In this document: piece after piece, positions 18,663-41,475 of the stretch
How positions within the stretch are numbered: the stretch's first letter is position 1
Layout of the letters: every line of letters begins with the position of its first letter
From: Paenibacillaceae bacterium
GTDB taxonomy: Bacteria > Bacillota > Clostridia > Lachnospirales > Lachnospiraceae
DNA: 64,000 nt
Assembly (NCBI GenBank): GCA_015057705.1
Contig: SVDU01000016.1
Location: forward strand, 849-64,848
Direction: 5' to 3'
Made by a program: the position numbers and the translations under genes
Notes under the pieces: model-generated
What the model saw: only the letters and a program-made list of their open reading frames with translations
Databases searched by the model: none
What the model was told of the DNA's origin: nothing

Positions 18663-18692
18663 AACCTACATCTCCTTCCTTGTCACCCTAAC

Positions 18693-19826: not shown

Positions 19827-20192
19827 TTAATCTGCCAGGTCATTTCCATAATAAAAACAGAATGCTTCGTACGTACTTTTTCCATTCAGTTTTTTTCTTC
19901 TATAGGATTTGATATGATCCATCATCAGATCCATATTTTCAAAGACCTGATTCTGTTCCTCTTCGGTCATGGAGTCTAACTTTTCATTGCTTTGGTCCAT
20001 GGCCTCATTTCTCCAAAGACGTCTGGCTTCTACTTCATAAGGGTTCTGTTTTTTCCCAAACCCATAAAATTTTTCTGATTGCGTCATTGTTTTATCTCCC
20101 TTCCATGATTTCATTGTCTTATCAAGAGTTTTCAGCATGGCATTAATACGCTTTTGTTCCAGCAGCAGATAGTCCCGTCGCAGTACGTTCAT
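19827..20192 (-). pseudogene. MerR/TipA(Mta)-family fragment lacking the HTH (middle part only)
   Basis: LEQKRINAMLKTLDKTM...EKFYGF...NPYEVEARRLW matches the TipA/Mta coiled-coil and TipAS start; MN start is fused directly to it. Confidence 0.7.
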
Positions 20193-20258
20193 AGAAGATA
20201 CCTCCTGATATTTACAATCATAGAGTATGACGCAGCGTTGTAGTCAATCCTTTTTTTA
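20187..20258 (-). repeat. 72-bp MerR-type promoter/RBS/start, copy A
   Basis: TTGACT-19 bp (dyad ACGCtGCGT)-TATGAT, RBS AGGAGG, ATGAAC; 71/72 identical to 25806-25877. Confidence 0.9.
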
Positions 20259-20318
20259 ATTATTTCTCAACTCTACTTCCTGAAATTTAACCGCATGGGG
20301 TATTTTTTACTGTCACGC

Positions 20319-20365
20319 AAAAAGGATAAGAATAGAAAGCTATTATACCTTCCATTCTTATCCTT
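20319..20365 (-). terminator. Terminator, diverged copy of 40409-40460
   Basis: AAGGATAAGAAT...ATTCTTATCCTT stem. Confidence 0.7.
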
Positions 20366-20379
20366 ATCACTCTTTCAAA

Positions 20380-20600
20380 TTATAGCCAAAATAAAATTAT
20401 ATCCACTACAAAAAATGCCAAAATAATTGCTACTTTCTTCCCGGTTATTATTGTGTTCTCCAGATTCTGAGCTATAATAGTTAATAACAAAATATTATAT
20501 GCCAACATGGAAAAACGTTCGCTCCAGATATATTTTATATAAATGGCAGGCGGTAAAAGTGACTTTAAATCAGAAATCGGCAGGCTCTGGAAACTTAAGA
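20380..20600 (-). pseudogene. 5'-truncated paralog of the small membrane protein at 40472-40750
   Basis: Hand translation LSFQSLPISDLKSLLPPAIYIKYIWSERFSMLAYNILLLTIIAQNLENTIITGKKVAIILAFFVVDIILFWL*; 56/72 identities by hand alignment; no start codon. Confidence 0.8.
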
Positions 20601-20606
20601 TGAGAC

Positions 20607-21236
20607 TTATAATATTTTATTTTTCATTAATTCGATATCATAAACAAGAATTTCCTTGGCACGCTCAAAATCCCCGTCTTCAATGGCATTTACAAGCTTA
20701 AAATGATCGTAATCGCCTTCCTCTTTGTTCTCCCATACTTTTATAAAATACTGATTGGCAATCAGGGTACATAATCGTAAGGAATCATTCAATGACTTTT
20801 GTAAATACCGGTTCCCGCAAAATCCGCAAAGGGCTTTATGAAATTTCTGATTCTGGTCCCAGTGAGCTTTAATATCCTGGCATTCAATAATTTTAGCTGC
20901 TTCTTCATTGAGTTCACGGAGTTCATTTAACTGTGCATCCGATATCTTATCGAAACACCGTTCCAGTGCTCCCACCTCGATTATCTTCCGGAATTCTATG
21001 GTTTCTACAATTTCCCCTGGTGTTATTAAAGACAGCTGATATCCAAAACGGGGGATATTATTAAGCACACCTTCACCGCACAGCTGAACCAGCGCTTCTC
21101 TGACAGGTGTCTTGCTTACCTGATATTTATCTATTAAATTCTTCTCGTTGATAATCTCGTTTGCCTGGTACACACCGTCCAGAATATCCTTTAATATTCC
21201 CTCATATACCTGGGTTTTTATCGACTGTCCCTGCAT
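20607..21236 (-). CDS. GntR family (FadR/FCD) transcriptional regulator
   Basis: YQVSKTPVREAL HTH; FHKAL FCD motif. Confidence 0.9.
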   Translation of the reverse strand: MQGQSIKTQVYEGILKDILDGVYQANEIINEKNLIDKYQVSKTPVREALVQLCGEGVLNNIPRFGYQLSLITPGEIVETIEFRKIIEVGALERCFDKISDAQLNELRELNEEAAKIIECQDIKAHWDQNQKFHKALCGFCGNRYLQKSLNDSLRLCTLIANQYFIKVWENKEEGDYDHFKLVNAIEDGDFERAKEILVYDIELMKNKIL

Positions 21237-21285
21237 CTTGTTTTATTTCCTTTCCCTTTGCTTCAAAATACAAATGCTTACCCAC

Positions 21286-22125
21286 TCACCCCTTTACAGC
21301 ACCGGCCATTGCACCAGCCTTTTGTAAAGTCTGCAGTAATAAATATAGCACAACAATTGGTATAATTACAAGTGTCGTTCCTGAAAGAATAACAGGCCAG
21401 GGAGTGGAAAGGCCTTCACTGACCGGAAGCAGCGAAATGGTTACCATGAGAGTATATTTAACCTGCTTTCTTAAATAAAGGACCGGCCAGAAAAAATCAT
21501 TCCACCTTGCAATCAAAGTAACTGCTGCCCAGGAAGCCAGAGCGGGCTTGATAACAGGAAGAATAATCTTAATAAAGATCATAAAATCCTTACATCCGTC
21601 TATTTTTGCAGCTTCCACCAATTCATCGGGAACGTCACAGATATACTGGTGCATATAAAAAATACCCACTGCAGTTGCAATTCGGGGAATTACCAGAGAC
21701 CACAGACTGTTGATTAAATTTAGTTTTTTCATAATTACAAATAGTGGAACTGCCCCAGTCTCAGGCGGCACAAGCATTGTTGCTATTACAAAATAGAACA
21801 GAAAGTCCCTGCCTGGAAACTTATATTTTGCAAAAGCAAAACCAGCAAGTGAACAAAAGAAAAGGGAGGTTACCGTACCCATAATTGTGGTGAAGATACT
21901 GTTAAAAGCATTTTGTAAAACAGGTATGGTTTCAAACAGGCGTCTGTAATTTTCAAACGCAGGGTCAGATACCCATATGGAATGTATTCCGCTCATTGTT
22001 TCGGAGGACGGTTTGAGTGAAATCAGGCACATCCACAATATAGGCATGATGCATAGGAATGATATGATAATCAGTATCGTATGAATAAAGAATGATACTG
22101 TTGTTTGTTTTCTTCTATATGCCAT
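21286..22125 (-). CDS. Carbohydrate ABC transporter permease
   Basis: ELVEAAKIDG EAA motif; WNDFFWP. Confidence 0.9.
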   Translation of the reverse strand: MAYRRKQTTVSFFIHTILIIISFLCIMPILWMCLISLKPSSETMSGIHSIWVSDPAFENYRRLFETIPVLQNAFNSIFTTIMGTVTSLFFCSLAGFAFAKYKFPGRDFLFYFVIATMLVPPETGAVPLFVIMKKLNLINSLWSLVIPRIATAVGIFYMHQYICDVPDELVEAAKIDGCKDFMIFIKIILPVIKPALASWAAVTLIARWNDFFWPVLYLRKQVKYTLMVTISLLPVSEGLSTPWPVILSGTTLVIIPIVVLYLLLQTLQKAGAMAGAVKG

Positions 22126-22136
22126 GTTTTATTCTC

Positions 22137-23006
22137 CTATATTTTTTCCTGTTTTCTACGGGCTATGAGCTGCACCACAGAGATTGCCGCCAGGATCAGA
22201 ATGAGAATCACGCCGATTGCAGACGCATATCCCATATTAAAGATATTGAATCCTGACTCATACATATATTGGAACAGCGAAGTATTTGATGTTCCCGGTC
22301 CTGGCAGGATATAGGATTCATTAAAGAGTTTCCAGCTGTCAACCGTCAGGGTAATGGAACAGAAAAACAAAATGTTTCCTAAAGACGGCAGCGTAATGCA
22401 GCAAAACTGCTTCCACATATTCGCACCATCAACGGTTGCCGCTTCATAATAGTCTCTTGGAATATTTAAAAGACCAGAAAAAATGATCATGGTAAACCAT
22501 GGGGTATTTCTCCACACATTTAAAATAATAACTGGAATCTTGGAAAATGTTGTGCTGGTAAGCCAGGGAACCTTTCCTATTCCCATGGCTTTCAGCACTT
22601 CGTTAATCAAACCGGCATTCTCGTCAAAGAGCATGCGAAAAATCAAACCCATGGCTATGGCAGCACAGATATTGGGCAGAAATGTGACCGTCTTAAAAAA
22701 GGTACTCCCTTTTAAATGCCCGTAATTTAACAGACTTGCGATGACTACAGCCAGAAACATGATAATAATCAGACCAGAGATCCAATACACCACAGTATTT
22801 TCAAGGGCTGCCCAGAACATATTATCAATGAAGAGCTTTTTGTAATTTTCTAACCCGCAAAACTCCGGTGCACCAATTCCTTTCCAGTTGGTAAGGCTGA
22901 TGTAGAATGTCCAGACTGTGGGGATCAGCTGGAACATGAAAAATAAAAGAAAAAACGGCAGAATAAACAGGTATGGAATTTTATTTTTCCTTATGATCTG
23001 CAGCAT
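22137..23006 (-). CDS. Carbohydrate ABC transporter permease
   Basis: DYYEAATVDGA EAA motif; GYASAIG. Confidence 0.9.
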   Translation of the reverse strand: MLQIIRKNKIPYLFILPFFLLFFMFQLIPTVWTFYISLTNWKGIGAPEFCGLENYKKLFIDNMFWAALENTVVYWISGLIIIMFLAVVIASLLNYGHLKGSTFFKTVTFLPNICAAIAMGLIFRMLFDENAGLINEVLKAMGIGKVPWLTSTTFSKIPVIILNVWRNTPWFTMIIFSGLLNIPRDYYEAATVDGANMWKQFCCITLPSLGNILFFCSITLTVDSWKLFNESYILPGPGTSNTSLFQYMYESGFNIFNMGYASAIGVILILILAAISVVQLIARRKQEKI

Positions 23007-23054
23007 ACTGATTCTCCTTCACTTTCTGGGGAGAGATAAGCTCTCCCCATTCAT

Positions 23055-24479
23055 TTACTTCATTATCTTTGCCTGTCCGATTTTTGCCTTTAGGTTTTTA
23101 TCCATATTTGCAATTGCCTGTTCCATAGTCTGGTTGCCTGCTACATAGGTTTCTAATTCTGCTGATATGATCTCATCTGCTTCTGCATCCTGTGGTGTAA
23201 TAACTAAATTGGCCGCACCATTTTCAAGACACTTTCCTTCCATTTCCCTGAAAGACTGTCCTCCGTAGTAGTCAGACGGTGCTTTCCAGAAATCATCCTG
23301 AAGCAGTTTTAAACAAATGGGATTGGCGTAAGGTGCATTCTGTTTTTCCATGGATTTTACCCAGGTATTTCTGGACTCTGCATCAAACTGGAAATCATGC
23401 CACAGCTGTTCCAGCAAGCCAGCATATACATTGTCACCTTTGTTAACAATACAAAAATAAGAAGATACAGGTGCGCCCGCTTTTCCCACTGATTCAAATT
23501 CCGGAGATGCCATAACTCTCCATTTTCCAGAAGTTGCTCCGCAGTTCTTTCTTAAAAATTCGTCCCAGAAAGCCCCGATGTAAAAGGTTGCCACCTGCCC
23601 ATTATTGATGGCATCATATAATGCAGGCTCCATAATCTCGGATTTAAGCAGAAGTCCCTGCTGATACATGGTATCCAAAGTTCCAAGCGCAAGCTTGGCT
23701 CCCTCATCCTGGCCGATCACAACATTGCCTGATTCATCCCAGATTTTAGCGTTTGCCTGCGGCATTAACCCTCTTCTTCCCCAGTATCTCCAGGTTTTGC
23801 TTCCGGGGCTGATATAGGATAAATAAACAGTGCCGTTGCTTTTTTCCTTTAGGAGTTTTCCAGCTTCCATGTAACCGTCAAAGGTGCTCATCATGGCTGG
23901 ATCAATTCCGTACTTATCAAAAATTTCTTTATTATAGAACAACACATTGGGTCTGACTGATTCCGGTAATCCGTAAGTATGTCCATTTACTGTTGCATCA
24001 TTGGCTGCACCATCAACCAGATCTTTTAAATAAGGCTGTAAAAATTCTGTTTCATCCTTCAGTAATCCGCCCTGTGATAATTCCATAATGTTAACGGGGT
24101 CTAAATAAGTTGCATCTGGCAGATCATCCACCGCTCCTGATAAAGCAGTCATGGTGATCTTCTCACGGCTCTTGGCATGCCCTTCAGTCTGAACGATGCT
24201 GATCTTTACATCAGGCGCAATGTCTTTGTGCCGTTCCAGCCATGCATCAAAATATTCCTGAAGATATTGTGGCTGACCGGTTCCGTAAATGGTGATTGTA
24301 CCCGACGGATATACCGTTTCCTTGGAAGCAGCTTCCGTTCCTGCCTCCGCCTTCTTGATTTCCTGTGCCTTCTCTTCTTTTGGAACATTGCTTCCACCAC
24401 AGCCTGCAAGTGTTGACAGAACCATGGTACCTGTTAATAGTGCTGCAATCATTTTCTTTCGCATAACAAACCCTCCCAA
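23055..24479 (-). CDS. Sugar ABC transporter substrate-binding lipoprotein
   Basis: Lipobox LAGC; YGLP...LFYNKEIF. Confidence 0.88.
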   Translation of the reverse strand: MGGFVMRKKMIAALLTGTMVLSTLAGCGGSNVPKEEKAQEIKKAEAGTEAASKETVYPSGTITIYGTGQPQYLQEYFDAWLERHKDIAPDVKISIVQTEGHAKSREKITMTALSGAVDDLPDATYLDPVNIMELSQGGLLKDETEFLQPYLKDLVDGAANDATVNGHTYGLPESVRPNVLFYNKEIFDKYGIDPAMMSTFDGYMEAGKLLKEKSNGTVYLSYISPGSKTWRYWGRRGLMPQANAKIWDESGNVVIGQDEGAKLALGTLDTMYQQGLLLKSEIMEPALYDAINNGQVATFYIGAFWDEFLRKNCGATSGKWRVMASPEFESVGKAGAPVSSYFCIVNKGDNVYAGLLEQLWHDFQFDAESRNTWVKSMEKQNAPYANPICLKLLQDDFWKAPSDYYGGQSFREMEGKCLENGAANLVITPQDAEADEIISAELETYVAGNQTMEQAIANMDKNLKAKIGQAKIMK

Positions 24480-24493
24480 ATTGTTAGTTTTTT

Positions 24494-25453
24494 CTACACT
24501 TCTCTGGCTGCAACTGTAATTGCTTTGATTCTTTCATAAGGTATCTCAGTTGGTAATGTACAGTCTGCCCCCAGTATAAATGCCGTCTTTCCATAATCCC
24601 TTATCACACTCTTTGCTTCTGCCTTAAGCTCTTCTATGGTACCCTCAACCATAACTCCGCTCCTGTTTCTCAATCCCCCCATTACAGTTGTACCTGGAAA
24701 TAACTCTCTTCCCTGCTCCAGGCTAAATTCAGTTTCGTAAACTCCCCAGTTTACTACATCTGCCAGTTCGTTGTAGGATGCATAGCGGTTCATGTTTAAA
24801 TGATCCTTACACATATGTAGGAAATTAATACCTCCTGCCTCCTTTGAAGCCTTGAGAATCTGTTTGTCAAATGGTTCGATGAACTCTGCAAATTCTTCAT
24901 CTGTAAAATAATGTCGTTCTCCTCCTAATGCTGCATAATAAATACCATCTAATCCCAAATCATGATACTTAACTGCCAGCTGGCATAATACATCCGTAAT
25001 TCTTTTAAAAGCGTCTACCACCGGCGCAGGATTTTCTCTTAAATGGGTACAGATTAATTCTCTCGTCTTTACATATCCATATCGACTTTCGTTTGGGTGA
25101 ATCGCAGAGGCACAGATTCCGTGAAGCGTACCCAGTGAAAAAGCTTCCCCATCCGCCTTCTCCATTATTCTTTTTACCAGTTCTATCTGTTTCAACATAA
25201 ATGTATCATTCATGGAATAAACCGGAATTTGATTCCAGTCATCTGGTGTTTTAATTACACCTGCGTCAGGAATGAGGTTTTCATTCATAATTTTAATGAT
25301 GTCAGTATCTGTTTCTGTAAAAAATTTCAGATGTGATGAAATTCCTCTATCTCCATGCTCTTCTCCTTCAGGAAAATGCAAAGAAAAGCCGGTAGGTACA
25401 TGATCCACCTCTTTCCCCTGTATTGCCGCAATCAAACGTTCTCTTTTATTCAT
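24494..25453 (-). CDS. Uroporphyrinogen decarboxylase (UroD/MtaA-CmuA) family protein
   Basis: MNKRERLIAAIQGKEVDHVP, LHMC, FILGADCTLP motifs. Confidence 0.8.
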   Translation of the reverse strand: MNKRERLIAAIQGKEVDHVPTGFSLHFPEGEEHGDRGISSHLKFFTETDTDIIKIMNENLIPDAGVIKTPDDWNQIPVYSMNDTFMLKQIELVKRIMEKADGEAFSLGTLHGICASAIHPNESRYGYVKTRELICTHLRENPAPVVDAFKRITDVLCQLAVKYHDLGLDGIYYAALGGERHYFTDEEFAEFIEPFDKQILKASKEAGGINFLHMCKDHLNMNRYASYNELADVVNWGVYETEFSLEQGRELFPGTTVMGGLRNRSGVMVEGTIEELKAEAKSVIRDYGKTAFILGADCTLPTEIPYERIKAITVAAREV

Positions 25454-25481
25454 CTAGTTTTTCCCAGCCTTTCTTCTGTTC

Positions 25482-25519
25482 ATATTACTGATATTATCAG
25501 TAATATTACCAGTTGTCAA
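25482..25519 (-). promoter_or_regulatory. Sigma-A promoter with overlapping 12-bp perfect palindrome (probable GntR operator)
   Basis: TTGACA (25514-25519)-17 bp-TAATAT (25491-25496); ATATTACTGATA-T-TATCAGTAATAT at 25482-25506. Confidence 0.75.
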
Positions 25520-25602
25520 TAGGTGCTCTTTTTAATCTATATTTTCTATATTAGTAACAATAAATGAACTTATTTTTGTGCATTCTATACATTTTTCATG
25601 CC

Positions 25603-25654
25603 AAAAAAAAGTACCGCCTCACCCAATTAAAAATCGGGTGGTCGGTATTTTTTT
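25603..25654 (-). terminator. Intrinsic terminator
   Basis: TACCG..CACCC...GGGTG..CGGTA stem flanked by A/T runs. Confidence 0.65.
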
Positions 25655-25811
25655 AGCTGCTCTTCTGGCTGTCTGCATAATATCCCATCGCTCTACTTAA
25701 AAATTCCGATAATCCCTCTGCATACTGATCTATATTCTGAGTAAAGCGTGAGCCTTATATATAAAGCTGGCCCAGGCCTGCAAATGTTTCCACTGCTTCC
25801 CTGGTGTTCAT
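25653..25811 (-). pseudogene. MerR/TipA-family fragment (start fused to TipAS C-terminus, internal stop)
   Basis: MNTREAVETFAGLGQLYI*GSRFTQNIDQYAEGLSEFLSRAMGYYADSQKSS* resembles the TipAS C-terminal F.GLG..Y..D.RF..NID...GL..F motif. Confidence 0.7.
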
Positions 25812-25877
25812 AGAAGATACCTCCTGACATTTACAATCATAGAGTATGACGCAGCGTTGTAGTCAATCCTTTTTTTA
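25806..25877 (-). repeat. 72-bp MerR-type promoter/RBS/start, copy B
   Basis: 71/72 identical to 20187-20258 (offset 5619 bp). Confidence 0.9.
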
Positions 25878-25970
25878 TATTATCTTTCTATCAACCTAAT
25901 ATACACAAAAAAAACGAACCTCCCACCCAATAATTTCCATCGGGCGGAGCGGTTCATTTCAGTTTCCAAT

Positions 25971-26678
25971 TCATAAATCTTTTACTGCCTTTAAATATGA
26001 GTTCATATGGTTTTGAAAAGCGTATAGTGTTTTGTCAAGAGATCCTGAGCGGCATGCATCAATAATTAACTTATGTTCGTCAAATTTTTCTTTCTTAATA
26101 CCTAATGTGGAGATATCCTTATTCATTGCAATCAGCAATTGAAAATATTGATTTTCTAAAATTTCAGCCCGCCTGAAGCTCTTTGACTTTTTCCAGAAAA
26201 ATTCATGAAAAGCCAGGTCATTTGAATTAAAAATAAAGTTCTTTTCCTTATCACCAATGACATTGTCACTATCCGACTTTATCATATCATTATTTAAAGT
26301 CTCCAGATAATCTAAATCCTGCTCCTGCAACAGGGATTTTTCAAAAATTATGGTAAGAATCTGCATTTCAAGTGGAATCCTTATGGAAAAGACCTCTGTA
26401 ATATCTTCATAATCCATCTCTAAAATCTGGCTGCCCTTCTTAGGAGAAAAAGTCAGGATCCCCCTCATATTAAGTTCTCTTAAAGCCTCTCTGATAGGTG
26501 CCCTGCTGATCTGTAGTTCTTCCGATACATCGGTTTCCACTAATCTGTCACCGCTTTTTAATTCTCCAGTCAAAATCTTGTTTTTAATATAGGAAACTAC
26601 AATTTCACTTAGATTTGCCTTTGAATATGTAATCATATGGCTTATTTTATCGTATGAATTACTTATCATAATATCCAC
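25971..26678 (-). CDS. GntR family (FCD) transcriptional regulator
   Basis: LQISRAPIREAL HTH; DLAFHEF. Confidence 0.9.
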   Translation of the reverse strand: MDIMISNSYDKISHMITYSKANLSEIVVSYIKNKILTGELKSGDRLVETDVSEELQISRAPIREALRELNMRGILTFSPKKGSQILEMDYEDITEVFSIRIPLEMQILTIIFEKSLLQEQDLDYLETLNNDMIKSDSDNVIGDKEKNFIFNSNDLAFHEFFWKKSKSFRRAEILENQYFQLLIAMNKDISTLGIKKEKFDEHKLIIDACRSGSLDKTLYAFQNHMNSYLKAVKDL

Positions 26679-26745
26679 CTCTCAATATAGATTCTATCAC
26701 TAACAGAATATTATACTATAGATGTAAGACAAATCATATGAATAA

Positions 26746-27651
26746 TTAAATATTCTGACAATACTTTTTAGCAAAATTAATAAACAATTCCTGAGCAGGA
26801 GTTAAAATCATATCTTTTTTCTGTACACAAAAAATATTTCTGCTTAACAATTCCGATTCGATTTCCACAACGTTAATCAGATTCAAATGATTGTAGATCT
26901 GTACTGCTGTTTTTGAAACAAAAGAAATTCCCATTCCCTGTGCTACAGCTTCGATAATTCCCTGAGTATTACTAAAATATGCAATGGTTTTTAAATCTTT
27001 TGCTGAAAGGCCATGCTTACTAAAAAATGCTTCCATCTCTGATCTGGTACCAGATCCCCCTTCTCTCATAATAAAATTTTTTTCTGCAATAAATTTTATT
27101 ATCTCCTCTGCCTTCCGGCTGCCGTCGTACTTCATTGCTATGGGTAATATCAAAACCAATTGATCTTTATATAATGGCGTCTGCGTATAACGACTGTTAT
27201 CACTTTCCATCCCTACAAATCCGATATCATACTGGTATTTAATCAGTTCCTCAAAGACTTCGCCGCTGTCTTTCTGATATAAATGGAACAGGATATTGGG
27301 ATATTCCTTATTGAAATCTGCTATCACCTGAGGCAAAATATACTGAGCCGGAACACTGGAGGCTAAAATGTTGACTTCACCAGTACATTCTCTTGAAAAC
27401 TTACTCATTTCATACAAAGACTGATCCCTGATAGCCAGCATTTTTTGAGCATACTCATAGAAATGGATCCCTGCCTTGGTGGGATATACCTTCTTTGTGG
27501 AACGGATAAACAATTGAGTTCCAATATCTTTTTCCAGTGCATTAATCTGGCTGCTCAGTGCCGGCTGAGTTAAGAATAAGGATTCAGAGGCCTTTGAAAA
27601 ACTTTGAAGCTTTGAAATCTGCACGAATGCTTCTAATTGTTTAAATTCCAT
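26746..27651 (-). CDS. LysR family regulator (resembles selenium-metabolism-associated/CysL type)
   Basis: FSKASESLFLTQPALSSQI HTH; REGGSGTR; adjacent to the sel genes. Confidence 0.85.
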   Translation of the reverse strand: MEFKQLEAFVQISKLQSFSKASESLFLTQPALSSQINALEKDIGTQLFIRSTKKVYPTKAGIHFYEYAQKMLAIRDQSLYEMSKFSRECTGEVNILASSVPAQYILPQVIADFNKEYPNILFHLYQKDSGEVFEELIKYQYDIGFVGMESDNSRYTQTPLYKDQLVLILPIAMKYDGSRKAEEIIKFIAEKNFIMREGGSGTRSEMEAFFSKHGLSAKDLKTIAYFSNTQGIIEAVAQGMGISFVSKTAVQIYNHLNLINVVEIESELLSRNIFCVQKKDMILTPAQELFINFAKKYCQNI

Positions 27652-27745
27652 ATGACCCTCTTCTTTCTAAAAACACAGCCCGATTGTGCCTGCACTTTAA
27701 CAGAAAAAAGAATGCAGGCACCTCAGGCGTTTTAACGTTTAAATT

Positions 27746-29206: not shown

Positions 29207-29310
29207 TTTTACCCTCCTCTTTAAAATAACCGTATGCCGTTTTCCTGCAATCCGATTTTATGTGACAGGAAACCTGCCTGGCAAAAGCAGATTTCCCGCC
29301 ACATAAAAAA

Positions 29311-30630: not shown

Positions 30631-30643
30631 ATCGTCCCTCCTT

Positions 30644-31969: not shown

Positions 31970-33369
31970 TCCATATCTCCTTTCAAATTAATTATTTTGT
32001 TTAAAAATTCTGCTGCTTCGAAAAGGTCTTCCTCGCTCATGGTTCTTACATCAAGCAATACTTTATTTTTGCAGATTCTTGATATAATGGGCACGGAGTT
32101 ATTTCTTAGCATTCGCTCCAGCATATCTGCCGAAATATGTTCCATGGTGATACTTACTGCATAAGAAGAAAGATTTACTCCCGGCATGGACCCTCCGCCG
32201 ATCTGTCCGGTGGTTTCTGTTACTTCATATTGTGCATCTGGCCTTTTTACCAGCAGACCATGTAATAACTCTGCTTTTTTCTTTAGGTTTTCCAGAGGCT
32301 CCGTGATCATTTTAAGAGTTGGGATCTGGGAAACTGCCGTCTCAGGAGTCAGATATTGCCTGAGAGTAAATTCAAGTGCCGTTAAGGTCAGTTTGTCAAT
32401 CCGCAGCGCCCTGAGCAGATGATTTTTCTTCATCCTGTTTATATACTCCGCTTTGCCTACAATGATACCGGCCTGAGGTCCGCCAAGCAGCTTATCTCCG
32501 CTGAAGCATACGATATCCGCTCTTTGTTCCAGACAGCTTCTGACTGTGGGTTCATCCCCAATTCCATATGCTTTAAGGTCCACCAGCAATCCGGATCCCA
32601 GATCATATATTAAGGGCAGACCATGTTTTTCACCAACCGCTTTCATCTGCTCCAGAGAGACCTCATCTGTAAAGCCAATAATCTTATAATTGCTGGTATG
32701 GACTTTTAATAAGGCCCCGGTATTCTCATTGATGTTCTCTTCATAATCTGATTTATGGGTTTTGTTTGTGGTTCCCACTTCAACCAGCCTGCATCCGCTG
32801 GCCGTCATGATTTCCGGAACGCGGAATGCGCCTCCAATCTCCACCAGCTCTCCTCTTGAAACGATAACCTCTTTCCCCTTGGCCACCGAGTTTAACACCA
32901 GATACACGGCTGCCGCATTGTTATTGACTACCAGCGCCGCTTCAGAACCGGTTAAAAAAGTAAGCAGCTGCTCTACATGTTCATACCTGGTTCCTCGTTC
33001 CCCTGTCTCCAGATCATACTCTAAATTGGAATAGGAGGCGCAGATTTCCTTCATGTTTTCCGAGACCATTTGGGAGAGTCTGGCTCTTCCCAGGTTCGTG
33101 TGCAGAACAACACCAGTTCCATTGATTACTTTTCGCAGATGGGGCTGGTTTTGCTTTTCAATTTCCGCTTTGATACGCCTGATTAAATCTTCCCTGGAGT
33201 ACTGATATGGACTGCCGGATAAAATTTTCTGTCTTTCCAGTTCAATTTCTTTTTGGCAGGCAAGCTTTACCAGAACCGCGGGTACATTGGTTATACCTTC
33301 TGATGCAATGCATCGTATCATCTCATCCACTTTTGGCAGCTGCCTCATAGAACTGTTTTTATCTGTCAT
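31966..33369 (-). CDS. selA: L-seryl-tRNA(Sec) selenium transferase
   Basis: VINGTGVVLHTNLGRA, VVNNNAAA, SRGELVEIGGAFR, FSGDKLLGGPQAG. Confidence 0.95.
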   Translation of the reverse strand: MTDKNSSMRQLPKVDEMIRCIASEGITNVPAVLVKLACQKEIELERQKILSGSPYQYSREDLIRRIKAEIEKQNQPHLRKVINGTGVVLHTNLGRARLSQMVSENMKEICASYSNLEYDLETGERGTRYEHVEQLLTFLTGSEAALVVNNNAAAVYLVLNSVAKGKEVIVSRGELVEIGGAFRVPEIMTASGCRLVEVGTTNKTHKSDYEENINENTGALLKVHTSNYKIIGFTDEVSLEQMKAVGEKHGLPLIYDLGSGLLVDLKAYGIGDEPTVRSCLEQRADIVCFSGDKLLGGPQAGIIVGKAEYINRMKKNHLLRALRIDKLTLTALEFTLRQYLTPETAVSQIPTLKMITEPLENLKKKAELLHGLLVKRPDAQYEVTETTGQIGGGSMPGVNLSSYAVSITMEHISADMLERMLRNNSVPIISRICKNKVLLDVRTMSEEDLFEAAEFLNKIINLKGDME

Positions 33370-33423
33370 CTTTTCATTCCTCACTATGTAGATTCAATCG
33401 TTCAAAGCGGTCTTATAACCGTG

Positions 33424-34584
33424 TCAGCCAATGAACTTCTTATCAGTAAGAATTTCCCTGGCCTTTTTTAAATTATGTTCCGCTATAAGGACTACCGGAC
33501 CTGTACAGCCCATTCCGCTCTCGGCATAAATACCCGCCCCCCATAAGCAGGAAACCGCTTCCTCCAGATCCATGATTTCAATCCCAAGGATTTCTTCCGT
33601 CACCACTTCCTTAGGGGGAGCTTTTACTTCCTCTGCTGACTCTGAATTTTTACTTTGCCTGCATTCATTCAGGATCTGCTCCAGACCGGCCTTCTTTGCC
33701 TTTGCAAATTCATCGGCAAGAACCTTCTGATAATCACCGTCAAGCAGTTCCTTTGCAAATTCCAGGGCTCCTGTGATGAGAGGAATTCCAGACGCCCTTG
33801 AGACGATCAGGATCAGCTTTTCAAACCCTTCTCCGATTCCAGGACCATATCCAAAACCAACCGATTCATAATTGCCTCCAGTGGTATAAGCAGAAAACAT
33901 CTTGGTCAGAACATTACCGGTCAGGGAATCCATAACCATCACATCAGCAGAGGCTGTCAGAAGGTCGTTGCCCCTCATGACAATTCCTCCATCTGCCCTG
34001 TTGGACGAAGCAAATTGAATGTCATAACCATTTTTTTTCAGCTTTTGCAGTGCGATCTCTGTCTGCCGTGCTCCGTCAACATTCAAAATGCCTACCGTGG
34101 GGTTTGCCACTCCGCAGGCTTTTGCAGTAATGATTCCGTAGATGGCGTTCTTTATCATGCTTTCAATCCTGTTTACGGATGAGGTTCCTGTAGTAGAAGC
34201 AAGATACATCTTTTTCCCGGCTGCCGGAGTAATGACACGTCCCACCGTAGAGACTCCGATGGGAAAAGGATAGTGCATGGTCACCGCCGCATAAGCTTCT
34301 TTTTTCTGGAGCATATCATCCATCTTTTTATGCCCCTCTTCTTCCGACGCGACCGGTATGACCTCAAGATTCTCCGCTTCCAGCTTCCGACTTCCAATCA
34401 CCTTTACAGATATTCCTTTTTTTGCTGCCTCATAAGCTGCCTGATAAATGGTCTCTTCTCCATGCTCACTTCCCATTGCAGTTATGGCGATGGGCATTTC
34501 CCTGCCGGATTGACCAGTCTCAAGCATATGAGCCATTTCAAAAAAGGTCTCTGCAATTAACTGTTTCATCTTACCTTCAGACAT
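33424..34584 (-). CDS. grdD: Reductase complex component C subunit alpha (PlsX-like)
   Basis: VTMHYPFPIGVSTVGRV, ESGMGCTGP. Confidence 0.92.
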   Translation of the reverse strand: MSEGKMKQLIAETFFEMAHMLETGQSGREMPIAITAMGSEHGEETIYQAAYEAAKKGISVKVIGSRKLEAENLEVIPVASEEEGHKKMDDMLQKKEAYAAVTMHYPFPIGVSTVGRVITPAAGKKMYLASTTGTSSVNRIESMIKNAIYGIITAKACGVANPTVGILNVDGARQTEIALQKLKKNGYDIQFASSNRADGGIVMRGNDLLTASADVMVMDSLTGNVLTKMFSAYTTGGNYESVGFGYGPGIGEGFEKLILIVSRASGIPLITGALEFAKELLDGDYQKVLADEFAKAKKAGLEQILNECRQSKNSESAEEVKAPPKEVVTEEILGIEIMDLEEAVSCLWGAGIYAESGMGCTGPVVLIAEHNLKKAREILTDKKFIG

Positions 34585-34588
34585 ATGA

Positions 34589-36127
34589 TCACCCCTCGTC
34601 TTCCTGAAGATGTTTTGCAAAATCCTTTAAAGATGCGGCAATCAGTTTCCTGATTTTGTCCTCAGACACCGTTTCCTCCTGTCCTGCACCGCTGTTTTGC
34701 TGAAGAACAAAGGATACTCCATCAAACAGATTGGTCATTCTTCCAAGAAACAGACTTCCTTTTCCAATCACCATGACTCTGTTGATTTTTTTATCCATCA
34801 ATTTCTGTCTGGCAAAGCCAAGATAAGGAACTCCGGAAGGGATATGTCCCTGCGTAGGGGCCCAGCCCACCATGCCATGTTCCGATACAAAATCAGCCAG
34901 CTGGGATTTCTCTATCTCTTTGCGCATGGCGGCAAGGGCTCCTATCATCTTATAATTAGCCTCAGGTACATTGCCGGCGCCTGCTGGCTTCGTTATATCC
35001 GGATTCTGCATTTCTACCGTATACTTATCAATATCGGTCAGCTTCAGCCCTGCCTTTTCAAGAGCTGATGCCGTCAGCGAAGAAATCACGTTCTGAGGAG
35101 AAGACCCGGTTCCTACTGTATGCCTGCCCACGATATCGGTATTGATCTCCGGGCTGACTCCGTCATTTGCGCTGACGAGAATGGCAAAACCGGCCACACA
35201 ATCCTCCAGTATGGGAATCCCTTTGCCTACATGATCCTTTCCGTTCATACCAAGCTTTGCGGTAGATCCTCCGGCAGCAACGATAACATGCTTAAATGTT
35301 CCTGCCTTCACCATAGCAGCCGCATGAATCAGGGCATGGGTCGGACCGGCACAGAAGCCTCTTATATCGCTGCCTGTGGCGTTGACTAGACCTGCGATTT
35401 CTGCTGCTGCTTTCGCAAAGTTTCCTCCGCCTCTCTGATTCATATCGCCGCAAGCCTCTTCCGAACACTCGATCACATATTCAATGTCTTCTTTCCTGAT
35501 ATGATTCTTATCAATTAAATGTAACAATGACAGAACACAGGAAGCCTTTGAAACAAGGTTTTCAAAAATGACATGGGCAGAAAGAGAATGGTCAATATCA
35601 TGTGCCGCTTTGATGCAGCCGACAATCATTCCTCCGTAATACAAAGGCTCTGCATGTTCGTCTGCGATGAAACCGTTAATTTCTGACAACTCAAAGTTTT
35701 TATCAAAGACACTTAAAAACTTTGGATCTATAAGACTGTGAGATTCTAATTTTTTCTTCACGGAAACAGCAAATTGTGATTCTAATTTTACAAGATCAAA
35801 TACATCACAAATTGCAATCAACCCGATAAATTCATCTTCCGGCATGATTTCTCCAAATCTGCCTTCTCTTTGTATGTAATCGGATTTCTGCTGATACCAT
35901 GGCTGTGCATAGCCAGCCAGCTCATCAGGTGTAATGTTTCCAATGTAAGTCTGATTTGGCAGATATGCTTTACATTCATCATAAGACCGCAGACTCTTAT
36001 CCAGATTTTTTAAATATTCAGAATCAGGATCAATGGTTCGCTGAGTTGTCTGTGTTGTACCATTATGAATTACCATATCTGGCGTATGAGCGAGTATGTA
36101 ACTTGCTCCTTTTAAGACGCTGTACAT
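34589..36127 (-). CDS. grdC: Reductase complex component C subunit beta
   Basis: HTPDM, ECSEEACGDMNQRGGGNFAKA, GFCAGP. Confidence 0.93.
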   Translation of the reverse strand: MYSVLKGASYILAHTPDMVIHNGTTQTTQRTIDPDSEYLKNLDKSLRSYDECKAYLPNQTYIGNITPDELAGYAQPWYQQKSDYIQREGRFGEIMPEDEFIGLIAICDVFDLVKLESQFAVSVKKKLESHSLIDPKFLSVFDKNFELSEINGFIADEHAEPLYYGGMIVGCIKAAHDIDHSLSAHVIFENLVSKASCVLSLLHLIDKNHIRKEDIEYVIECSEEACGDMNQRGGGNFAKAAAEIAGLVNATGSDIRGFCAGPTHALIHAAAMVKAGTFKHVIVAAGGSTAKLGMNGKDHVGKGIPILEDCVAGFAILVSANDGVSPEINTDIVGRHTVGTGSSPQNVISSLTASALEKAGLKLTDIDKYTVEMQNPDITKPAGAGNVPEANYKMIGALAAMRKEIEKSQLADFVSEHGMVGWAPTQGHIPSGVPYLGFARQKLMDKKINRVMVIGKGSLFLGRMTNLFDGVSFVLQQNSGAGQEETVSEDKIRKLIAASLKDFAKHLQEDEG

Positions 36128-36218
36128 AGTTTGCCTCCTATAATAAATCAATTCCTGCAAAATGTGATGCCATATACCATTCGCATTTCACAAGAATTGA
36201 TTTGTGAAGGGATGATTA

Positions 36219-36683
36219 TTAAAATTTACAATATTCGTCCCTTATTGTTGACATCTCTTTTCGGATATCATCGACATCCAATACCATTTCCATCATACTG
36301 ATCTGCTCGTCGTAGACAGCGCTATCCACTTCATCTTTGATTTCCGGCTCACAGGCATGGTATACTTTTAGTCCCAACTGGACTCCTGCCAAAGGTCCTG
36401 CAAAAGTAGGGTCTCCTGCCGTAACAGTTTCAGCAGCAAGGCCGGCAGCCTCACCTTCTGCGGCTCCTAAAATAACAATAATATTTTCAGGGCCGTACTG
36501 TTCCGCCAATGCTTTTACCCTCTTCTGATTTTCCAGGTCCATGGCACCCGCAGCCGTTCAGACAAAGCATTCTGTTGACGAGAATACTACTTCTGCACCG
36601 GCCGTTTTAACACACTGCTCAATTGCAGGTCCCGGAATGCCGTCTCTGTCACCGATAATGATTGCTTTTTTGTCTTTAAGCAT
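36219..36683 (-). CDS. grdA: Reductase complex selenoprotein A (154 aa, Sec42)
   Basis: Hand translation [51 protein letters not shown]; TGA at 36558-36560; the track shows only the part after UGA. Confidence 0.95.
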
Positions 36684-36783
36684 ATTAATTTCCTCCTTAT
36701 TCATATATTTATAACGTGCGCCAGCAGGATAAAGGATTTACACTGCAGGCTGAAACATAACTTTCCACGTTATGTACTGGGTT

Positions 36784-37107
36784 TTACTCAAATGCATATT
36801 TCTTTATCATTTCTTCAATTCTTTCAGGTGTTGCATCATCTTTTACTAATTCTTCTATTTTTTCCCCGTCTTTATAGATTGCCATAACAGGTAATCCAAG
36901 AATTTTCTGAGAAATAGCAAGCCTTCTGGCTTTTGTGGTATTCAGTTTTGTAAATTTGATTTTATCGCTGTATTTTTCAGCAAATTTTTCAACATGAGGG
37001 AGCAGAGCCTGGCAGGGCACACACCCGTCCCCAAAAAAGTCCACAAATACAATTCCTTCTGCCTTCAGTACTTCTGGTTCAAACGTATCTTTATCCACAA
37101 TTAACAT
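36784..37107 (-). CDS. trxA: Thioredoxin (clostridial GCVPC type)
   Basis: [11 protein letters not shown] active site. Confidence 0.92.
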
Positions 37108-37108
37108 T

Positions 37109-38050
37109 CTAATTCCCTCCTTCATTTTCTATATATTTCTCTGCCATGACAGCCGCGATGGCTCCATCTGCACAGGCAGTGACAACCTGTCTTAAACTCT
37201 TAATTCTGATATCCCCGGCAGCAAAGACGCCCGGTATATTTGTTTCCATATTTTCATTTGTTCTGATATAACCGTATTCCATATCCAGACTGCCCTCAAA
37301 ACATTTTGACTGGGGCAGATATCCGATAAAACCAAAGATTCCGAATGTTCCATCTTCTTCATCGGCAACAATATCCGTTACTTCCCCAGTCTTTACGTTT
37401 TCCACCGACATACTCTGGACCATTCCATCTCCTTTTATTTCTTTCACTACAGAGTCCCACATGAAATCTACTTTCGGATTATTAAATGCTTTTTCCTGAA
37501 TGGATTTTGCGGCACGAAGCTCATCTCTTCTATGGATAATGGTAACCTTTCGGCCAAATTTTGTCAGATAAAGAGCCTCTTCAACAGCAGTATCTCCGCC
37601 TCCGACTACAAAAATTTCAAAATCCTCAAAGAAGTTTCCGTCACAGGTTGCACAATAGGACACTCCTTTTCCGATTAATTCTCTTTCCCCCGGACAACCG
37701 ATCGGCTTAGGATATGCGCCGGTGGCAATGATTACCGTTTTAGCGTGGTACTCGTTCCTCTTTCCTTTCAATACCTTAACATCTCCGGAGAAATCCACCG
37801 ATTCAATGCAGTCAGACGTTCGTTCAATCCCAAATTTCTCTACCTGCTTTGTCATTCTTTCCACCAGAGTGCTGCCTGACTCCTCCGGAAGACATCCCGG
37901 ATAATTTTCAATCTCGGAAGTAATAACGATCTGTCCCCCATCCTTATCTTTTTCAATCAGCAGCGCATTCAGTCTGGCTCTCCCTGCATAAAGACCGGCA
38001 GACAGGCCGGCAGGTCCTCCACCAACAATTACAACATCATAAACTTTCAA
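37109..38050 (-). CDS. trxB: Thioredoxin reductase
   Basis: [29 protein letters not shown]. Confidence 0.95.
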
Positions 38051-38063
38051 AGCGCACCTCCAT

Positions 38064-39938
38064 TTATTTTTTAGTATTTAATACCCTGTCTTCTCCCTCA
38101 CGTCTGGTATATCGTTCCTGATCAAACCGTTCCAGAAGCATTAATGCAAACTTTCTGCTGGTTTCAATGGAATCCCTGAAATCCGGAAGCTTTATTATTC
38201 CCTTTTCAAAAAAGAGTCTTTCTGCCAATTCTTTGGCCTTTCTATACTGTGTTTCCGTCAGAATAAATTGTCCGGGGAATACAAAGAAATCACTCTGGAG
38301 CATAAATTCAAGTACCTGCTGCCTATCTTTCCTATTCTCCGTAAGCTCTACAGCTGTTAACATTGTATAGCCGCTTTCCATAACCCGTTTCTTTAATTCA
38401 TCTCTGATTTTCTTCTGGCCTTCTGTGAGGGCCGGTTCAAAATCACAACACGAAACCAGATTCTGTTCCAGCTTTACCTCGTTCTTTGCAGCCAGATATT
38501 TTAACATGGTCTCACACTGCTTCTTATTAGATATATCAAGCTTGTCCAGTAATTCTGCCTTAGGAATTCCTTTTCGCAATCGGTTATTTTTATGATAATC
38601 CCTTAAGACCGCCTCCACCATAAACCTGTAATGCGCCAGATATTCCATATGGATATACTGCTTTTCTATGAATAAAATAATTTCTTCCTCTTCCAGCTCT
38701 TTCAGTTCTTCTTCTTTTATGTCTTTATTTAAAAAAGCAGATATCATAGAAAAATCAGAAAATGGATTGTTTTTTATATATTCTTCTATAATATCCTTGT
38801 CAGAGGCTGAGTCCTTTATCCGAAGCGACCGCAGCCGTTCATCGGGATCATTTTTATATTTCAACGCTTTCGGATCTACGATGACTCCGCCGCCGATGGT
38901 TGTGACTGGAGAAATCGTTCTTAATACAAAACGGTCACCCTTCAAAACAGCTATTTCATGATCCAGCAGAATCTGGGCATAACCTTCATCCCCAGCCTTT
39001 ACTTTTTTATGGGTGATGGGTATAAATCTCGCCACTTCCTCTGACGCTCCGGTATATAACTTCAGCTTATAAAACTTACCGATTTCAAGCTTTGTGGATT
39101 TAACGATGGAAAACTTGACATCAATCCTGTCCGTTACGTATACACCGTCCCTTGCAGCAACTGTGTTTCCTCTCCTTAATTCATTCACCGTTATATTGGA
39201 TAAGTTGATCGCCGTTCTCTGTCCGGCGTATGCTAAATCCACGTTATGCTCATGAACCTGAAGATTCCGGACTTTCGTAAGAATTCCCTGAGGATAAACC
39301 ATCAGTTCATCTTCTGTTCTCAAGATACCTTCCATCAAAGTTCCGGTAACTACGGTTCCGTACCCTTTAACAGAAAAAACCCGGTCTATATTCATTCGGG
39401 GTTTTTTCGTGAAACTGCGTTCCCGGATATCTGAAGTCAGGATCTCAAGCTCGGATATTAACACATCAAAACCTGTCCTGCTGACAGAATCAACTTCCAC
39501 GATCTTAGTTCCTTCTAAAAAGGTACCCTTTATAAACGACCGGATATCTTCTATTACCAGCTCCTTAAAATCCTCCTCTACAAGATCGATCTTGGTAAGA
39601 ACAATCAGAAATTTTTGTATTCCCAGGTAACTGAGGATGTCGATATGCTCTCTAGTCTGGGGCATAATCCCTTCATTTGCCGCAATAATGATCATGGCAG
39701 CATCAATGCCCGTGGCGCCGGCCAGCATATTCTTAATAAACTTTTCGTGCCCTGGAACATCAACAATTCCAAGCGTACGTCCGTTAGGAAGCTGAAAGCC
39801 GGTAAATCCAAGATTAATTGAAATTCCTCTTTTCTTCTCTTCCGCAAGGGTATCCGTATCATGGCCTGTCAGCGCTTTCACCAATGCCGTTTTGCCATGA
39901 TCGATATGCCCTGCCGTCCCTACAACTATGCTGTCCAT
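38064..39938 (-). CDS. selB: Selenocysteine-specific elongation factor
   Basis: [23 protein letters not shown]; C-terminal winged-helix region ending [13 protein letters not shown]. Confidence 0.95.
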
Positions 39939-40012
39939 TTATTCCTCCCCAAAAGGCGTATTGTTATTTTTTTAACTATACGGGCGCAATTTATGTAAAT
40001 GTAAATTATTTT

Positions 40013-40106
40013 TGGCGGAAGCATATGGGAATCGAACCCACCCACGACTATAAGCCGCAACACGGTTTTGAAGACCGGTAGGCACACCAGTTACCTCTCT
40101 GCTTCC
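40013..40106 (-). tRNA. selC: tRNA-Sec (anticodon UCA), 94 nt with encoded CCA
   Basis: GGAAGCAGAGAGGTAACTGGTGTGCCTACCGGTC-TTCAAA-ACCG...GGGTTCGATTCCCATATGCTTCCGCCA; long variable arm and extended acceptor stem. Confidence 0.95.
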
Positions 40107-40114
40107 ATTCATAT

Positions 40115-40172
40115 ATTGTAGATTGTCTACAATCTTCTTTTACATTATAACTATATTTTTGTACTATATCAA
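40115..40172 (-). promoter_or_regulatory. Sigma-A promoter of the selC-led operon with downstream palindrome
   Basis: TTGATA (40167-40172)-17 bp-TATAAT (40144-40149); ATTGTAGA-N3-TCTACAAT at 40115-40133. Confidence 0.75.
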
Positions 40173-40408
40173 CAAGGTATTTTTTATATTTCAAACTCAC
40201 TTTATTTAATTTTTTTATATTTTCTAAAAATTCATTTAAAAAACATACATATGATACAATTATCGCCAAACAGATGCAGCAGTTCTTTTAAAGTAGATAT
40301 CACATGCTGCATCAAAAATATAGTGACCGAATGGATGTTGTCTCCTCATTTATTCAGGCTTTGCTTGGTAATATTTATTGGGAAAGTTGAGTTACTTATA
40401 AATAAAAT

Positions 40409-40460
40409 AAAAACGGATAAGAATAAGAGGCTAATATGCCACATATTCTTATCCGTTTTT
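40409..40460 (-). terminator. Bidirectional-looking intrinsic terminator
   Basis: AAAAACGGATAAGAAT...ATTCTTATCCGTTTTT, 16-bp perfect stem. Confidence 0.8.
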
Positions 40461-40471
40461 ATTGTTACAGA

Positions 40472-40750
40472 CTACACCCAAAATAAAATTATATCAACTA
40501 CAAAAAATGCCACAATAATTGCTACCTTCTTTGCTGTTGAGCTTCTATTCTGTTCACTAAATATATTCTGAGCTATAATGGTTAATAACAAAATATTATA
40601 TGCCAACATAGAAATCCGTTCACTCCAAATATATTTTAAATAAATGTCATTTGGTAAAAAAGATTTCAGATCAGATATTGGCAGGATTAAGAAACTAAAT
40701 CCAATACTTATAAGAATTAATAATATAAAAATATATTTTTTAATTTTCAT
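40472..40750 (-). CDS. Small hypothetical membrane protein (92 aa)
   Basis: RBS AGGAGG, hydrophobic helices; the diverged in-frame paralog at 20380-20600 supports coding status. Confidence 0.75.
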   Translation of the reverse strand: MKIKKYIFILLILISIGFSFLILPISDLKSFLPNDIYLKYIWSERISMLAYNILLLTIIAQNIFSEQNRSSTAKKVAIIVAFFVVDIILFWV

Positions 40751-40954
40751 TTAAAGTTCCTCCTGCTTTTAATGTTAACATCATCCGCCTGATGCCTTTG
40801 AGTGTAAGAACTTATATAATATCCAAAAGCATCATAATATTTAATTGTATCGTGATAGTAATGAGTATAATATGAATTATCGGACTTAAAATAAACCTCA
40901 TTTACTTGTGCGCTTTCTCTTCATAACTAATATCACTTTACTTTTCTATTTTCT

Positions 40955-41431: not shown

Positions 41432-41475
41432 TGTCTGTTCTCCTTTTCTACTTTTTCGCTTACTTTCTCTTATCC

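Follow-up and report, generated by a model that had tools for sequence, protein, structure and literature searches.

The selenocysteine and betaine reductase cassette

The 64,000-nucleotide stretch analysed here (hereafter the window; positions 849 to 64,848 of contig SVDU01000016.1, GenBank assembly GCA_015057705.1) comes from a genome deposited as Paenibacillaceae bacterium and placed by GTDB in the Lachnospiraceae; it belongs to Lacrimispora, a genus of gut and soil bacteria. It carries a block of 13 genes, here called the cassette, which combines genes for the insertion of selenocysteine (Sec) with those of a betaine reductase. The cassette spans approximately 25878-40273, lies entirely on the minus strand and reads tRNA-Sec, selB, trxB, trxA, grdA, grdC, grdD, selA, grdI, grdH, BCCT transporter, LysR and GntR. 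The source genome, a 36-contig draft of 4.5 Mb, was compared within a set of 49 Lacrimispora genomes; labels of the form G0xx denote genomes of this set, the source genome being G000. The features of the cassette, and the gene that bounds the slot in which it lies, are as follows.

25878-25970, no strand: left junction, an A/T-rich stretch with TTTCTA and the hairpin terminator behind the cassette GntR gene
25971-26678, minus: GntR/FCD regulator (profile match)
26746-27651, minus: selenium-metabolism-associated LysR regulator (NF040786, 322.8 against a cut-off of 250)
27746-29206, minus: glycine betaine BCCT transporter (NF047988, 660.5 against a cut-off of 650)
29311-30630, minus: grdH, with an in-frame TGA (NF040795, betaine_GrdH, 814 bits against a cut-off of 775)
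29540-29577, minus: selenocysteine insertion sequence (SECIS) element (RF01990), directly after the grdH UGA
30644-31969, minus: grdI (PF09338)
31966-33384, minus: selA (PF03841), embedded in the grd operon
33424-34620, minus: grdD (passes the equivalog cut-off)
34589-36160, minus: grdC (passes the equivalog cut-off)
36219-36683, minus: grdA (279.8 against a cut-off of 130), with CFV-U (CxxU) at an in-frame TGA
36784-37125, minus: trxA
37109-38050, minus: trxB
38064-39938, minus: selB (GTP_EFTU and SelB wing domains)
40013-40106, minus: tRNA-Sec (selC), first gene of the operon (ARAGORN and Rfam RF01852)
40107-40273, minus: cassette promoter region, with a -35 box TTGATA at 40166-40171, a 17-nucleotide (nt) spacer and a -10 box TATAAT at 40143-40148
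40114-40132, minus: perfect palindrome ATTGTAGACAATCTACAAT, upstream of tRNA-Sec
40955-41485, minus: LOR/Tubby-C-like gene (hereafter LOR), the conserved right border of the slot

The gene set for betaine reductase is complete (GrdH/GrdI, GrdA, GrdC/GrdD, TrxA and TrxB), and no other grd genes, that is, no paralogues, were found anywhere in the genome. When scored with its in-frame TGA translated as U, GrdH carries the motif T-U-G-T-C (UxxC) at that codon and falls under the cut-offs of the sarcosine and glycine NCBIfam models. The gathering-threshold scan with Rfam gave no SECIS element for grdA. For Sec decoding, the window provides tRNA-Sec, SelA, SelB and the SECIS element, with SelD encoded elsewhere in the genome. 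As far as its genes can tell, the cassette would be functionally self-contained, supplying the Sec-insertion machinery for its own two selenoproteins. One promoter with a palindromic operator would drive expression from tRNA-Sec through to the BCCT transporter, with LysR and GntR following; both promoter and palindrome are kept at all three chromosomal sites at which the cassette is found, as judged from an 11-genome alignment. Betaine would then be imported and cleaved by GrdHI, GrdA and GrdCD to trimethylamine and acetyl-phosphate, with electrons supplied by thioredoxin (Trx), as expected from knowledge of these families.

A preliminary description of this DNA had assigned the cassette to a defined slot that lacks an integrase, and this holds. 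All open reading frames (ORFs) in 25971-41485 have assignments other than a site-specific recombinase, no such enzyme was found in the flanks of the two other sites, and a search for transposases in the cassette and its surroundings was likewise negative at all three sites. No insertion sequence (IS) copies bound the cassette, the only IS remnant in the window (19592-19936) lying ~6 kb away. Its G+C content (GC) is like that of the flanks and gives no foreign mark.

Within the genus, selA is present in 19 of the 49 genomes, scattered over a species tree built from 2.1 kb of the single gene rpoB. The cassette occupies three chromosomal sites, two of which also have empty-site alleles. Site 1 is that of the window. 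At site 2 (G019, G012, G023, G044, G047 and G055) the same 13 genes follow in the same order behind a citrate synthase gene and a TGA-containing selD, and the DNA is colinear with the window from ~25963 to 40235. At site 3 (G009, G060, G063 and G041) the cassette lies directly behind genes for a Cys-type SelD, a LysR regulator, a class-V aminotransferase, a TusA-domain protein and a Se/S-carrier protein. At the end away from the promoter, homology between the sites stops with the last codon of GntR. In the source genome site 2 is empty, its flanks being adjacent at C15:72550 and 72626, and it is uninterrupted in 12 other genomes too; for cassette-free genomes of the site-2 clade this survey scored the left flank only. 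The same site is a recurrent break point, with inserts of ~8.4 kb in G001, ~1.8 kb in G061 and ~17 kb in cassette-bearing genomes. Because the cassette is a discrete block found in 19 of 49 genomes, with empty-site alleles and with other sites in other clades, the proposal that selenoprotein capability is an accessory trait in Lacrimispora is supported.

Where does the selenophosphate come from? Two Cys-type selD genes are present in the source genome, type I at C5:304699-305727 and type II at C29:11959-12969, neither of them near the cassette. Type II is nearly universal in the genus. Type I is found only in cassette-bearing genomes of the source clade and the site-3 clade, and in the source genome it lies in an island of 8.85 kb (C5:299937-308785; locus L183, 5937-14785) together with genes for a polar amino acid ABC transporter, an HGD-D/BcrAD activator pair, a LysR regulator, a class-V aminotransferase and TusA-domain and Se/S-carrier proteins. 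The same set of genes stands immediately before the cassette at site 3. All seven other members of the clade that have the cassette also have the island, in colinear form, whereas the cassette-free G008, G054, G051 and G004 lack it cleanly, its flanks there being 22-75 nt apart; within the source clade, island and cassette thus co-vary without exception. In G064, a complete genome, ~175 kb separates them. The selenophosphate for Sec most likely comes from the type I SelD of this island.

Alleles of the slot at site 1

Across the 16 species of the closest clade in which the slot was compared, its borders fall at a break at 15899/15900 on the left and at the LOR stop codon on the right. In G020 and G043 the flank is followed by ~100 nt with one terminator and then LOR. 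In G022 and G051 the slot holds a methyltransferase block, described below, and an intact merR gene whose promoter stands directly against LOR; G004 is like G022 with 2.7 kb extra. The product of the intact gene in these relatives is a MerR/TipAL protein of 249-250 amino acids (aa) with MerR_1 and TipAS domains. Factors of this type have an N-terminal MerR helix-turn-helix (HTH), a coiled coil and a C-terminal TipAS domain. The preliminary description had proposed to look in relatives for an empty site with small gene, terminator, merR promoter and intact merR; in these three genomes the site is empty and merR is intact.

Alleles that include the cassette are found in seven other members of the clade. 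The slot of G050, the sister of the source genome (98% identical), and those of G005, G064 and G003 hold merR and the cassette; that of G042 has in addition a selD adjoining LOR; that of G045 contains an ABC/FtsX block, merR and the cassette; and that of G015 combines the methyltransferase block, one intact merR and the whole cassette. All seven have a single merR and the same left cassette junction, whereas the LOR-side junction varies. The same block in the same slot, which the preliminary description had proposed to look for, is thus found in these seven; other relatives are empty here or carry the cassette elsewhere. Two further alleles are those of G008, with a copy of a small membrane gene alone, and G054, with ~2 kb of other genes, merR and relics of the cassette.

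In the outgroup G061, merR and its promoter are followed by ~70 nt and then LOR. Because this is the same merR-LOR adjacency as in G022, G004 and G051, the cassette-free junction is best read as ancestral and the cassette as an insertion. The ancestral slot would have held a MerR/TipAL regulator with its promoter against LOR, and from these comparisons the slot appears to be a hypervariable intergenic site of the Lacrimispora chromosome.

The methyltransferase block has a history of its own. In G051, G022, G004 and G015 it lies between the flank and an intact merR, with synteny at 90-94%. With its GntR-regulated, sugar-type ABC transporter (20607-25453 with the methyltransferase) it appears to be ancestral in the slot of these four genomes, and to have been deleted independently in at least two lineages with different end points, one represented by G042 and the other by G050, G005, G064 and G003.

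Rearrangement of merR in the source genome

The left part of the slot in the window, together with the segment on the LOR side of the cassette, has the following features.

15900-19591, minus: low-GC block, with an FtsX-type permease (15901-17880), an ABC ATPase (17928-18662) and a piece of a PapB-type maturase (18693-19277)
19592-19936, minus: IS remnant (3' end), HTH_38 IS30-like transposase, multicopy in the genus
19827-20192, minus: chimeric 121-aa ORF made of merR codons 1-2, codons ~80-165 (19923-20186) and an IS transposase tail, without the HTH
20187-20258, minus: MerR-type promoter, copy A (within-window repeat and motif)
20259-20318, no strand: spacer, its start resembling the cassette-free merR-LOR junction of G004 and G051
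20319-20627, minus: small membrane gene, copy A, and terminator (hairpin 20319-20363, gene 20364-20627); 5' end and frame lost, reading MKNKIL* and then a shift
20607-25650, minus: methyltransferase block, with a GntR(FCD) regulator, two ABC permeases, a solute-binding protein, a URO-D/MtaA-CmuA-like methyltransferase and a terminator (Pfam, NCBIfam)
25653-25808, minus: merR fragment, codons 1-6 joined to codons ~204-249, with an internal stop
25806-25877, minus: MerR-type promoter, copy B, adjoining the cassette in all cassette-bearing members of the clade
40410-40750, minus: small membrane gene, copy B, and terminator (hairpin 40410-40454, gene 40472-40750); intact, 92 aa

No complete MerR/TipAL protein is encoded in the window. 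Set against the intact 249-aa protein of G005 and G003, the gene is in three pieces, with codons ~7-79 and 166-203 missing and the HTH region absent. Both merR fragments of the preliminary description are present, but neither is a simple remnant. At 19827-20192 the IS transposase tail is fused in frame to the merR piece, and Pfam gives only a partial TipAS domain; 25653-25808 is the fusion listed above, whose C-terminal piece is contiguous with the methyltransferase block, just as in G051. The IS remnant corresponds to the terminal part of a transposase ORF of 440 aa in G051 and has matches of 88-94% identity at unrelated places in 11 genomes of the genus. The low-GC block (GC 0.30-0.34 against ~0.42) is common only to the source genome and G045 (97% identity), and in these two it replaces a terminator hairpin after 15899 that is kept in all other relatives. 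Its radical SAM/SPASM maturase is represented by the C-terminal half only (Pfam, NCBIfam), and 15901-19277 as a whole has the look of a low-GC remnant of a ranthipeptide-type cluster for a ribosomally synthesised and post-translationally modified peptide.

Two families of repeats lie around these pieces, at the places given in the preliminary description, and the genes between them, from tRNA-Sec to grdH followed by BCCT, LysR and GntR, are likewise as described. The first is the 72-nt promoter element, whose copies are identical at 71 of 72 positions in a within-window comparison; a search of the whole genome found these two copies and no third. On the minus strand it comprises TTGACT, a 19-nt spacer, TATGAT, a ribosome-binding site and ATGAAC, that is, a MerR-type promoter, and a 19-nt spacer is a hallmark of MerR-regulated promoters. 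The second comprises the small membrane gene and its terminator, 20319-20620 matching 40410-40721 with 78-80% identity in three ungapped segments and with the GGATAAGAAT/ATTCTTATCC hairpin in both copies. The likeness of the two products that had been reported is real (~50 of 66 residues identical in a tblastn alignment), but only copy B is an intact gene. In G050 only the 3' end and terminator of this gene remain. Its homologues in G020 and G043 sit among integrase, XRE and phage-like genes, and the small membrane gene is therefore probably cargo of mobile elements. In the spacer between the promoter and small-gene copies A, 20303-20320 resembles the end of the conserved flank at 15877-15892 (15 of 16 positions, p ~0.008), which is a hint only; a resemblance of 20259-20300 to the LOR 3' end was set aside, being not significant (p ~0.09).

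The sister genome G050 has an intact merR, no methyltransferase block and no ABC block. Because this close relative shows none of the insertions, the duplicated elements can be taken as recent and genome-specific: the duplicated promoter and second small gene appear to be a local rearrangement peculiar to the source genome and not the frame into which the cassette landed. In a later event, confined to the source genome, the methyltransferase block, the small-gene copy, the IS and the low-GC ABC/ranthipeptide remnant would have entered merR and its surroundings, splitting merR into three non-functional pieces and duplicating 72 nt of its promoter. Several orders of these events fit the data.

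Two other features of the window lie outside the slot. An azaaromatic (yjdF-type) riboswitch at 44701-44828 (Rfam RF01764, 59 bits) lies upstream of a DUF2992 gene at 44268-44684. At 3-1814 a tandem array in a coding region has a period of ~222 nt and units ~72-76% alike; relatives have longer arrays, seen as laddered BLAST matches.

Origin, spread and loss of the cassette

How, then, did the cassette reach the slot between merR and LOR? A trace of its arrival survives on the LOR side. In G003, G045, G015 and G054 a hairpin is kept between the cassette promoter and LOR, and its stem contains AAA CAC AAG TGA; this hairpin corresponds to the last codons and terminator of the selD of site 2. In G042 a complete TGA-containing selD stands between cassette and LOR, and homology to site 2 starts ~50 nt from the point at which the insert of G019 begins relative to the empty site. 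The cassettes tell a similar story. A tree built from the 14.3-kb cassette alignment joins the clade of the source genome to the site-2 group as its sister (SH support 1.0), but rpoB gives another grouping of the clades. The cassettes of the source clade share 80-83% identity with those of the site-2 group and 73.5% with those of the site-3 group, whereas in rpoB the two groups are equally distant (84-86%). These observations point to an old transfer of a Sec-type selD and the cassette from a site-2-type Lacrimispora lineage into the merR-LOR slot. If there was such a transfer it must be ancient, because the cassette has diverged by 17-20% from those at site 2. A segment of at least 15.5 kb, Sec-type selD followed by the 14.3-kb cassette, would have been inserted between the merR promoter and LOR in the ancestor of part of the clade, and selD would later have been deleted in most descendants, leaving its last codons and terminator.

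The preliminary description had suggested that the cassette entered by homologous recombination through the repeated flanks. This cannot apply to the first insertion, since merR and LOR are absent at the other sites and could not have served as homology arms. An 8-nt A/T-rich direct repeat, TTTTCTAA, which is imperfectly extendable, is present at both insert junctions and occurs once in G004 and G051; it is too short and too A/T-rich to discriminate between mechanisms.

Later presence and absence of the cassette have more than one cause. In G054 the relics include ~50 nt of the junction region beside the merR promoter (25878-25927), 22 nt of the GntR 3' end (26027-26048), a fragment of an IS3 orfA and the right half of the selD terminator, and this allele is best explained as a secondary deletion of the cassette, marked by the IS3 fragment. 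For G051 the evidence is of another kind. Its merR (locus L021, 2639-3015) is only 82-86% identical to the other alleles of the clade, which are 90-96% identical to one another, whereas its rpoB is 97-98% identical to that of its neighbours; its cassette-free allele thus appears to have been imported by recombination in the flanks. The cassette would therefore have been lost both by deletion, as in G054, and by exchange with cassette-free alleles through homologous recombination in the flanks, as in G051, and the latter process plausibly explains later swaps between presence and absence. In G064 (L. xylanisolvens ASCUSBR21; loci L018/L019) the cassette persists, but selA is broken into two frames, merR carries a frameshift and the type I selD is truncated at the N terminus, so that the Sec trait appears to be decaying.

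We consider it probable, taking these observations together, that the cassette is a relocatable accessory unit inserted from a site-2-type lineage, and that the scrambling of merR is later and genome-specific. Several points weigh against this. Searches revealed neither a recombinase nor inverted terminal repeats nor a convincing target duplication, and TTTTCTAA could reflect chance or microhomology. At 17-20% divergence from the site-2 cassettes, a transfer is hard to tell from vertical descent with relocation. The species tree is based on 2.1 kb of rpoB, and within the closest subclade (97-99% identity) its branching order is weakly supported, which makes the number of independent losses uncertain. 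Betaine reductase function, finally, is predicted from family membership alone.

The alternatives differ in what they ask of these data. Were the cassette purely vertical, present in the Lacrimispora ancestor, moved twice within genomes, often lost and never transferred laterally, its tree should follow that of rpoB; within clades it does, and cassette divergence keeps pace with that of the species, with identities of 92-98% within the source clade and 73-83% between clades; the congruence that the preliminary description had thought worth examining thus holds at this level but breaks down at depth, where the source clade joins the site-2 group in conflict with rpoB. The GC match with the flanks and the documented losses in G054 and G064 would also suit vertical descent, as would the finding that the closest SelB from other genera reaches only 46% identity, which argues against any recent import from outside. 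On the other hand, basal members of the clade and the outgroup have an uninterrupted merR-LOR junction or an empty slot, alleles that lack the cassette and retain the ancestral junction occur nested within the species that carry it, and the insert of the clade bears the scar of the site-2 selD although site 2 is cleanly empty in the same genomes. We therefore regard an exclusively vertical history as unlikely.

Two explanations confined to the source genome fare worse. It is very unlikely that 19592-25877 is an assembly chimera in which a strain with the methyltransferase block was joined to one with the cassette through the 72-nt repeat. The genome is a 36-contig draft, and an arrangement of repeat, 5.6 kb and repeat is formally equal to a chromosome plus a circle, but the repeat copies differ at one base, the longest exact repeat (49 nt) is below usual final assembly k-mers, the merR breaks (codon 2|80, codon 6|204, codon 165|IS) are off the repeat borders, a misjoin cannot delete the HTH region, and the ABC block is found independently in this slot in G045. 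Scarcely credible, too, is the scenario of the preliminary description, in which a compact locus of small gene, terminator, merR promoter and merR was doubled and the cassette then entered one copy by homologous recombination. The repeats exist and do bracket the cassette in the source genome. The seven other carriers, however, have one merR, with no second promoter copy, and a LOR side with no small gene or with a different gene; the repeat families differ greatly in age (99% against 78-80% identity); the small gene is not beside the cassette at sites 2 and 3; the copy A side holds an IS remnant and pieces of the same single merR; and the sister G050 by itself already contradicts the idea.

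Transfer from a site-2-type lineage, the history that we favour, has precedents. For Photobacterium profundum and Treponema denticola it has been described that the complete Sec-decoding trait was transferred laterally, along with glycine reductase selenoproteins and a Sec-type selD (Romero et al. 2005, PMC1273633; Zhang et al. 2006, PMC1794560). The later of these papers predicted that such transfer depends on the clustering of selA, selB and selC with one or more selenoprotein genes. As in that case, selA, selB and selC are clustered here with a client operon (GrdA and a GrdB-type protein) and a Sec-type selD, with a Cys-type selD elsewhere, and the trait is patchy, its gain and loss reversible. 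The Lacrimispora event differs in lying within one genus and in being resolved to junctions, empty sites and relics. It differs also in that the sel genes are interleaved in the reductase operon, with tRNA-Sec first, the client is betaine reductase (GrdH/GrdI) and not glycine reductase, and a separate island for selD and selenium delivery co-varies with the cassette.

The operon itself recalls the betaine reductase operon of Eubacterium (Peptoclostridium) acidaminophilum, which encodes GrdH, GrdI, GrdA, GrdC, GrdD, TrxA and TrxB (cf. Andreesen 2004, cited in PMC1273633). The Lacrimispora unit would specify the same protein set, passes the betaine-specific GrdH model and has CxxU in GrdA and UxxC in GrdH, but it embeds selC, selB and selA and adds a betaine BCCT transporter and the LysR and GntR regulators. 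As a genomic site, the slot resembles flexible genomic islets of the replacement type, which lack an integrase and in which conserved genes frame a fixed slot whose alternative cassettes are swapped by homologous recombination. It has fixed borders (15899 and LOR), at least eight alleles in 16 close species, no recombinase and, in G051, an imported merR. Unlike such islets, the same cassette is also found at two unrelated sites, which implies at least one step independent of homologous flanks. As a discrete block that has a tRNA gene at one extremity and the same short direct repeat at its two junctions, the cassette also recalls tRNA-linked islands and integrative elements, but there is no integrase, tRNA-Sec is cargo and not target, the repeat is 8 nt and A/T-rich, and the GC is not deviant. 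A search of the literature on Lacrimispora with selenocysteine and on grdH with selB found no publication on the cassette.

We conclude that the Lacrimispora cassette is a fine-scale case of the known transfer of Sec traits, with unusually tight interleaving of sel and grd genes and explicit junctions, and not a new kind of system. It offers a junction-level example, within one genus, of the proposal, made from broad comparative genomics, that the Sec trait travels only when selA, selB and selC cluster with a client selenoprotein. The co-variation of the cassette with the island on C5 also gives a hint as to which of the two SelD enzymes serves Sec synthesis. A bolder view, which we put forward only tentatively, is that the Sec trait is portable in two parts, a 14-kb cassette and an unlinked ~9-kb island for selD and selenium delivery some 160-175 kb away, which are gained and lost together. 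The cassette, whose ends are conserved, would have entered at least three unrelated sites with no recombinase of its own. Were this so, it would imply either an unrecognised route of mobilisation or illegitimate integration on several occasions, with later spread by recombination between homologous flanks.

For the biology of these bacteria, the formation of trimethylamine from betaine, a reaction of relevance in the gut, would be a character that some Lacrimispora species have and their close relatives lack. Strains with and without the cassette seem to be available in culture, those with it including L. xylanisolvens DSM 3808 and L. amygdalina DSM 12857.

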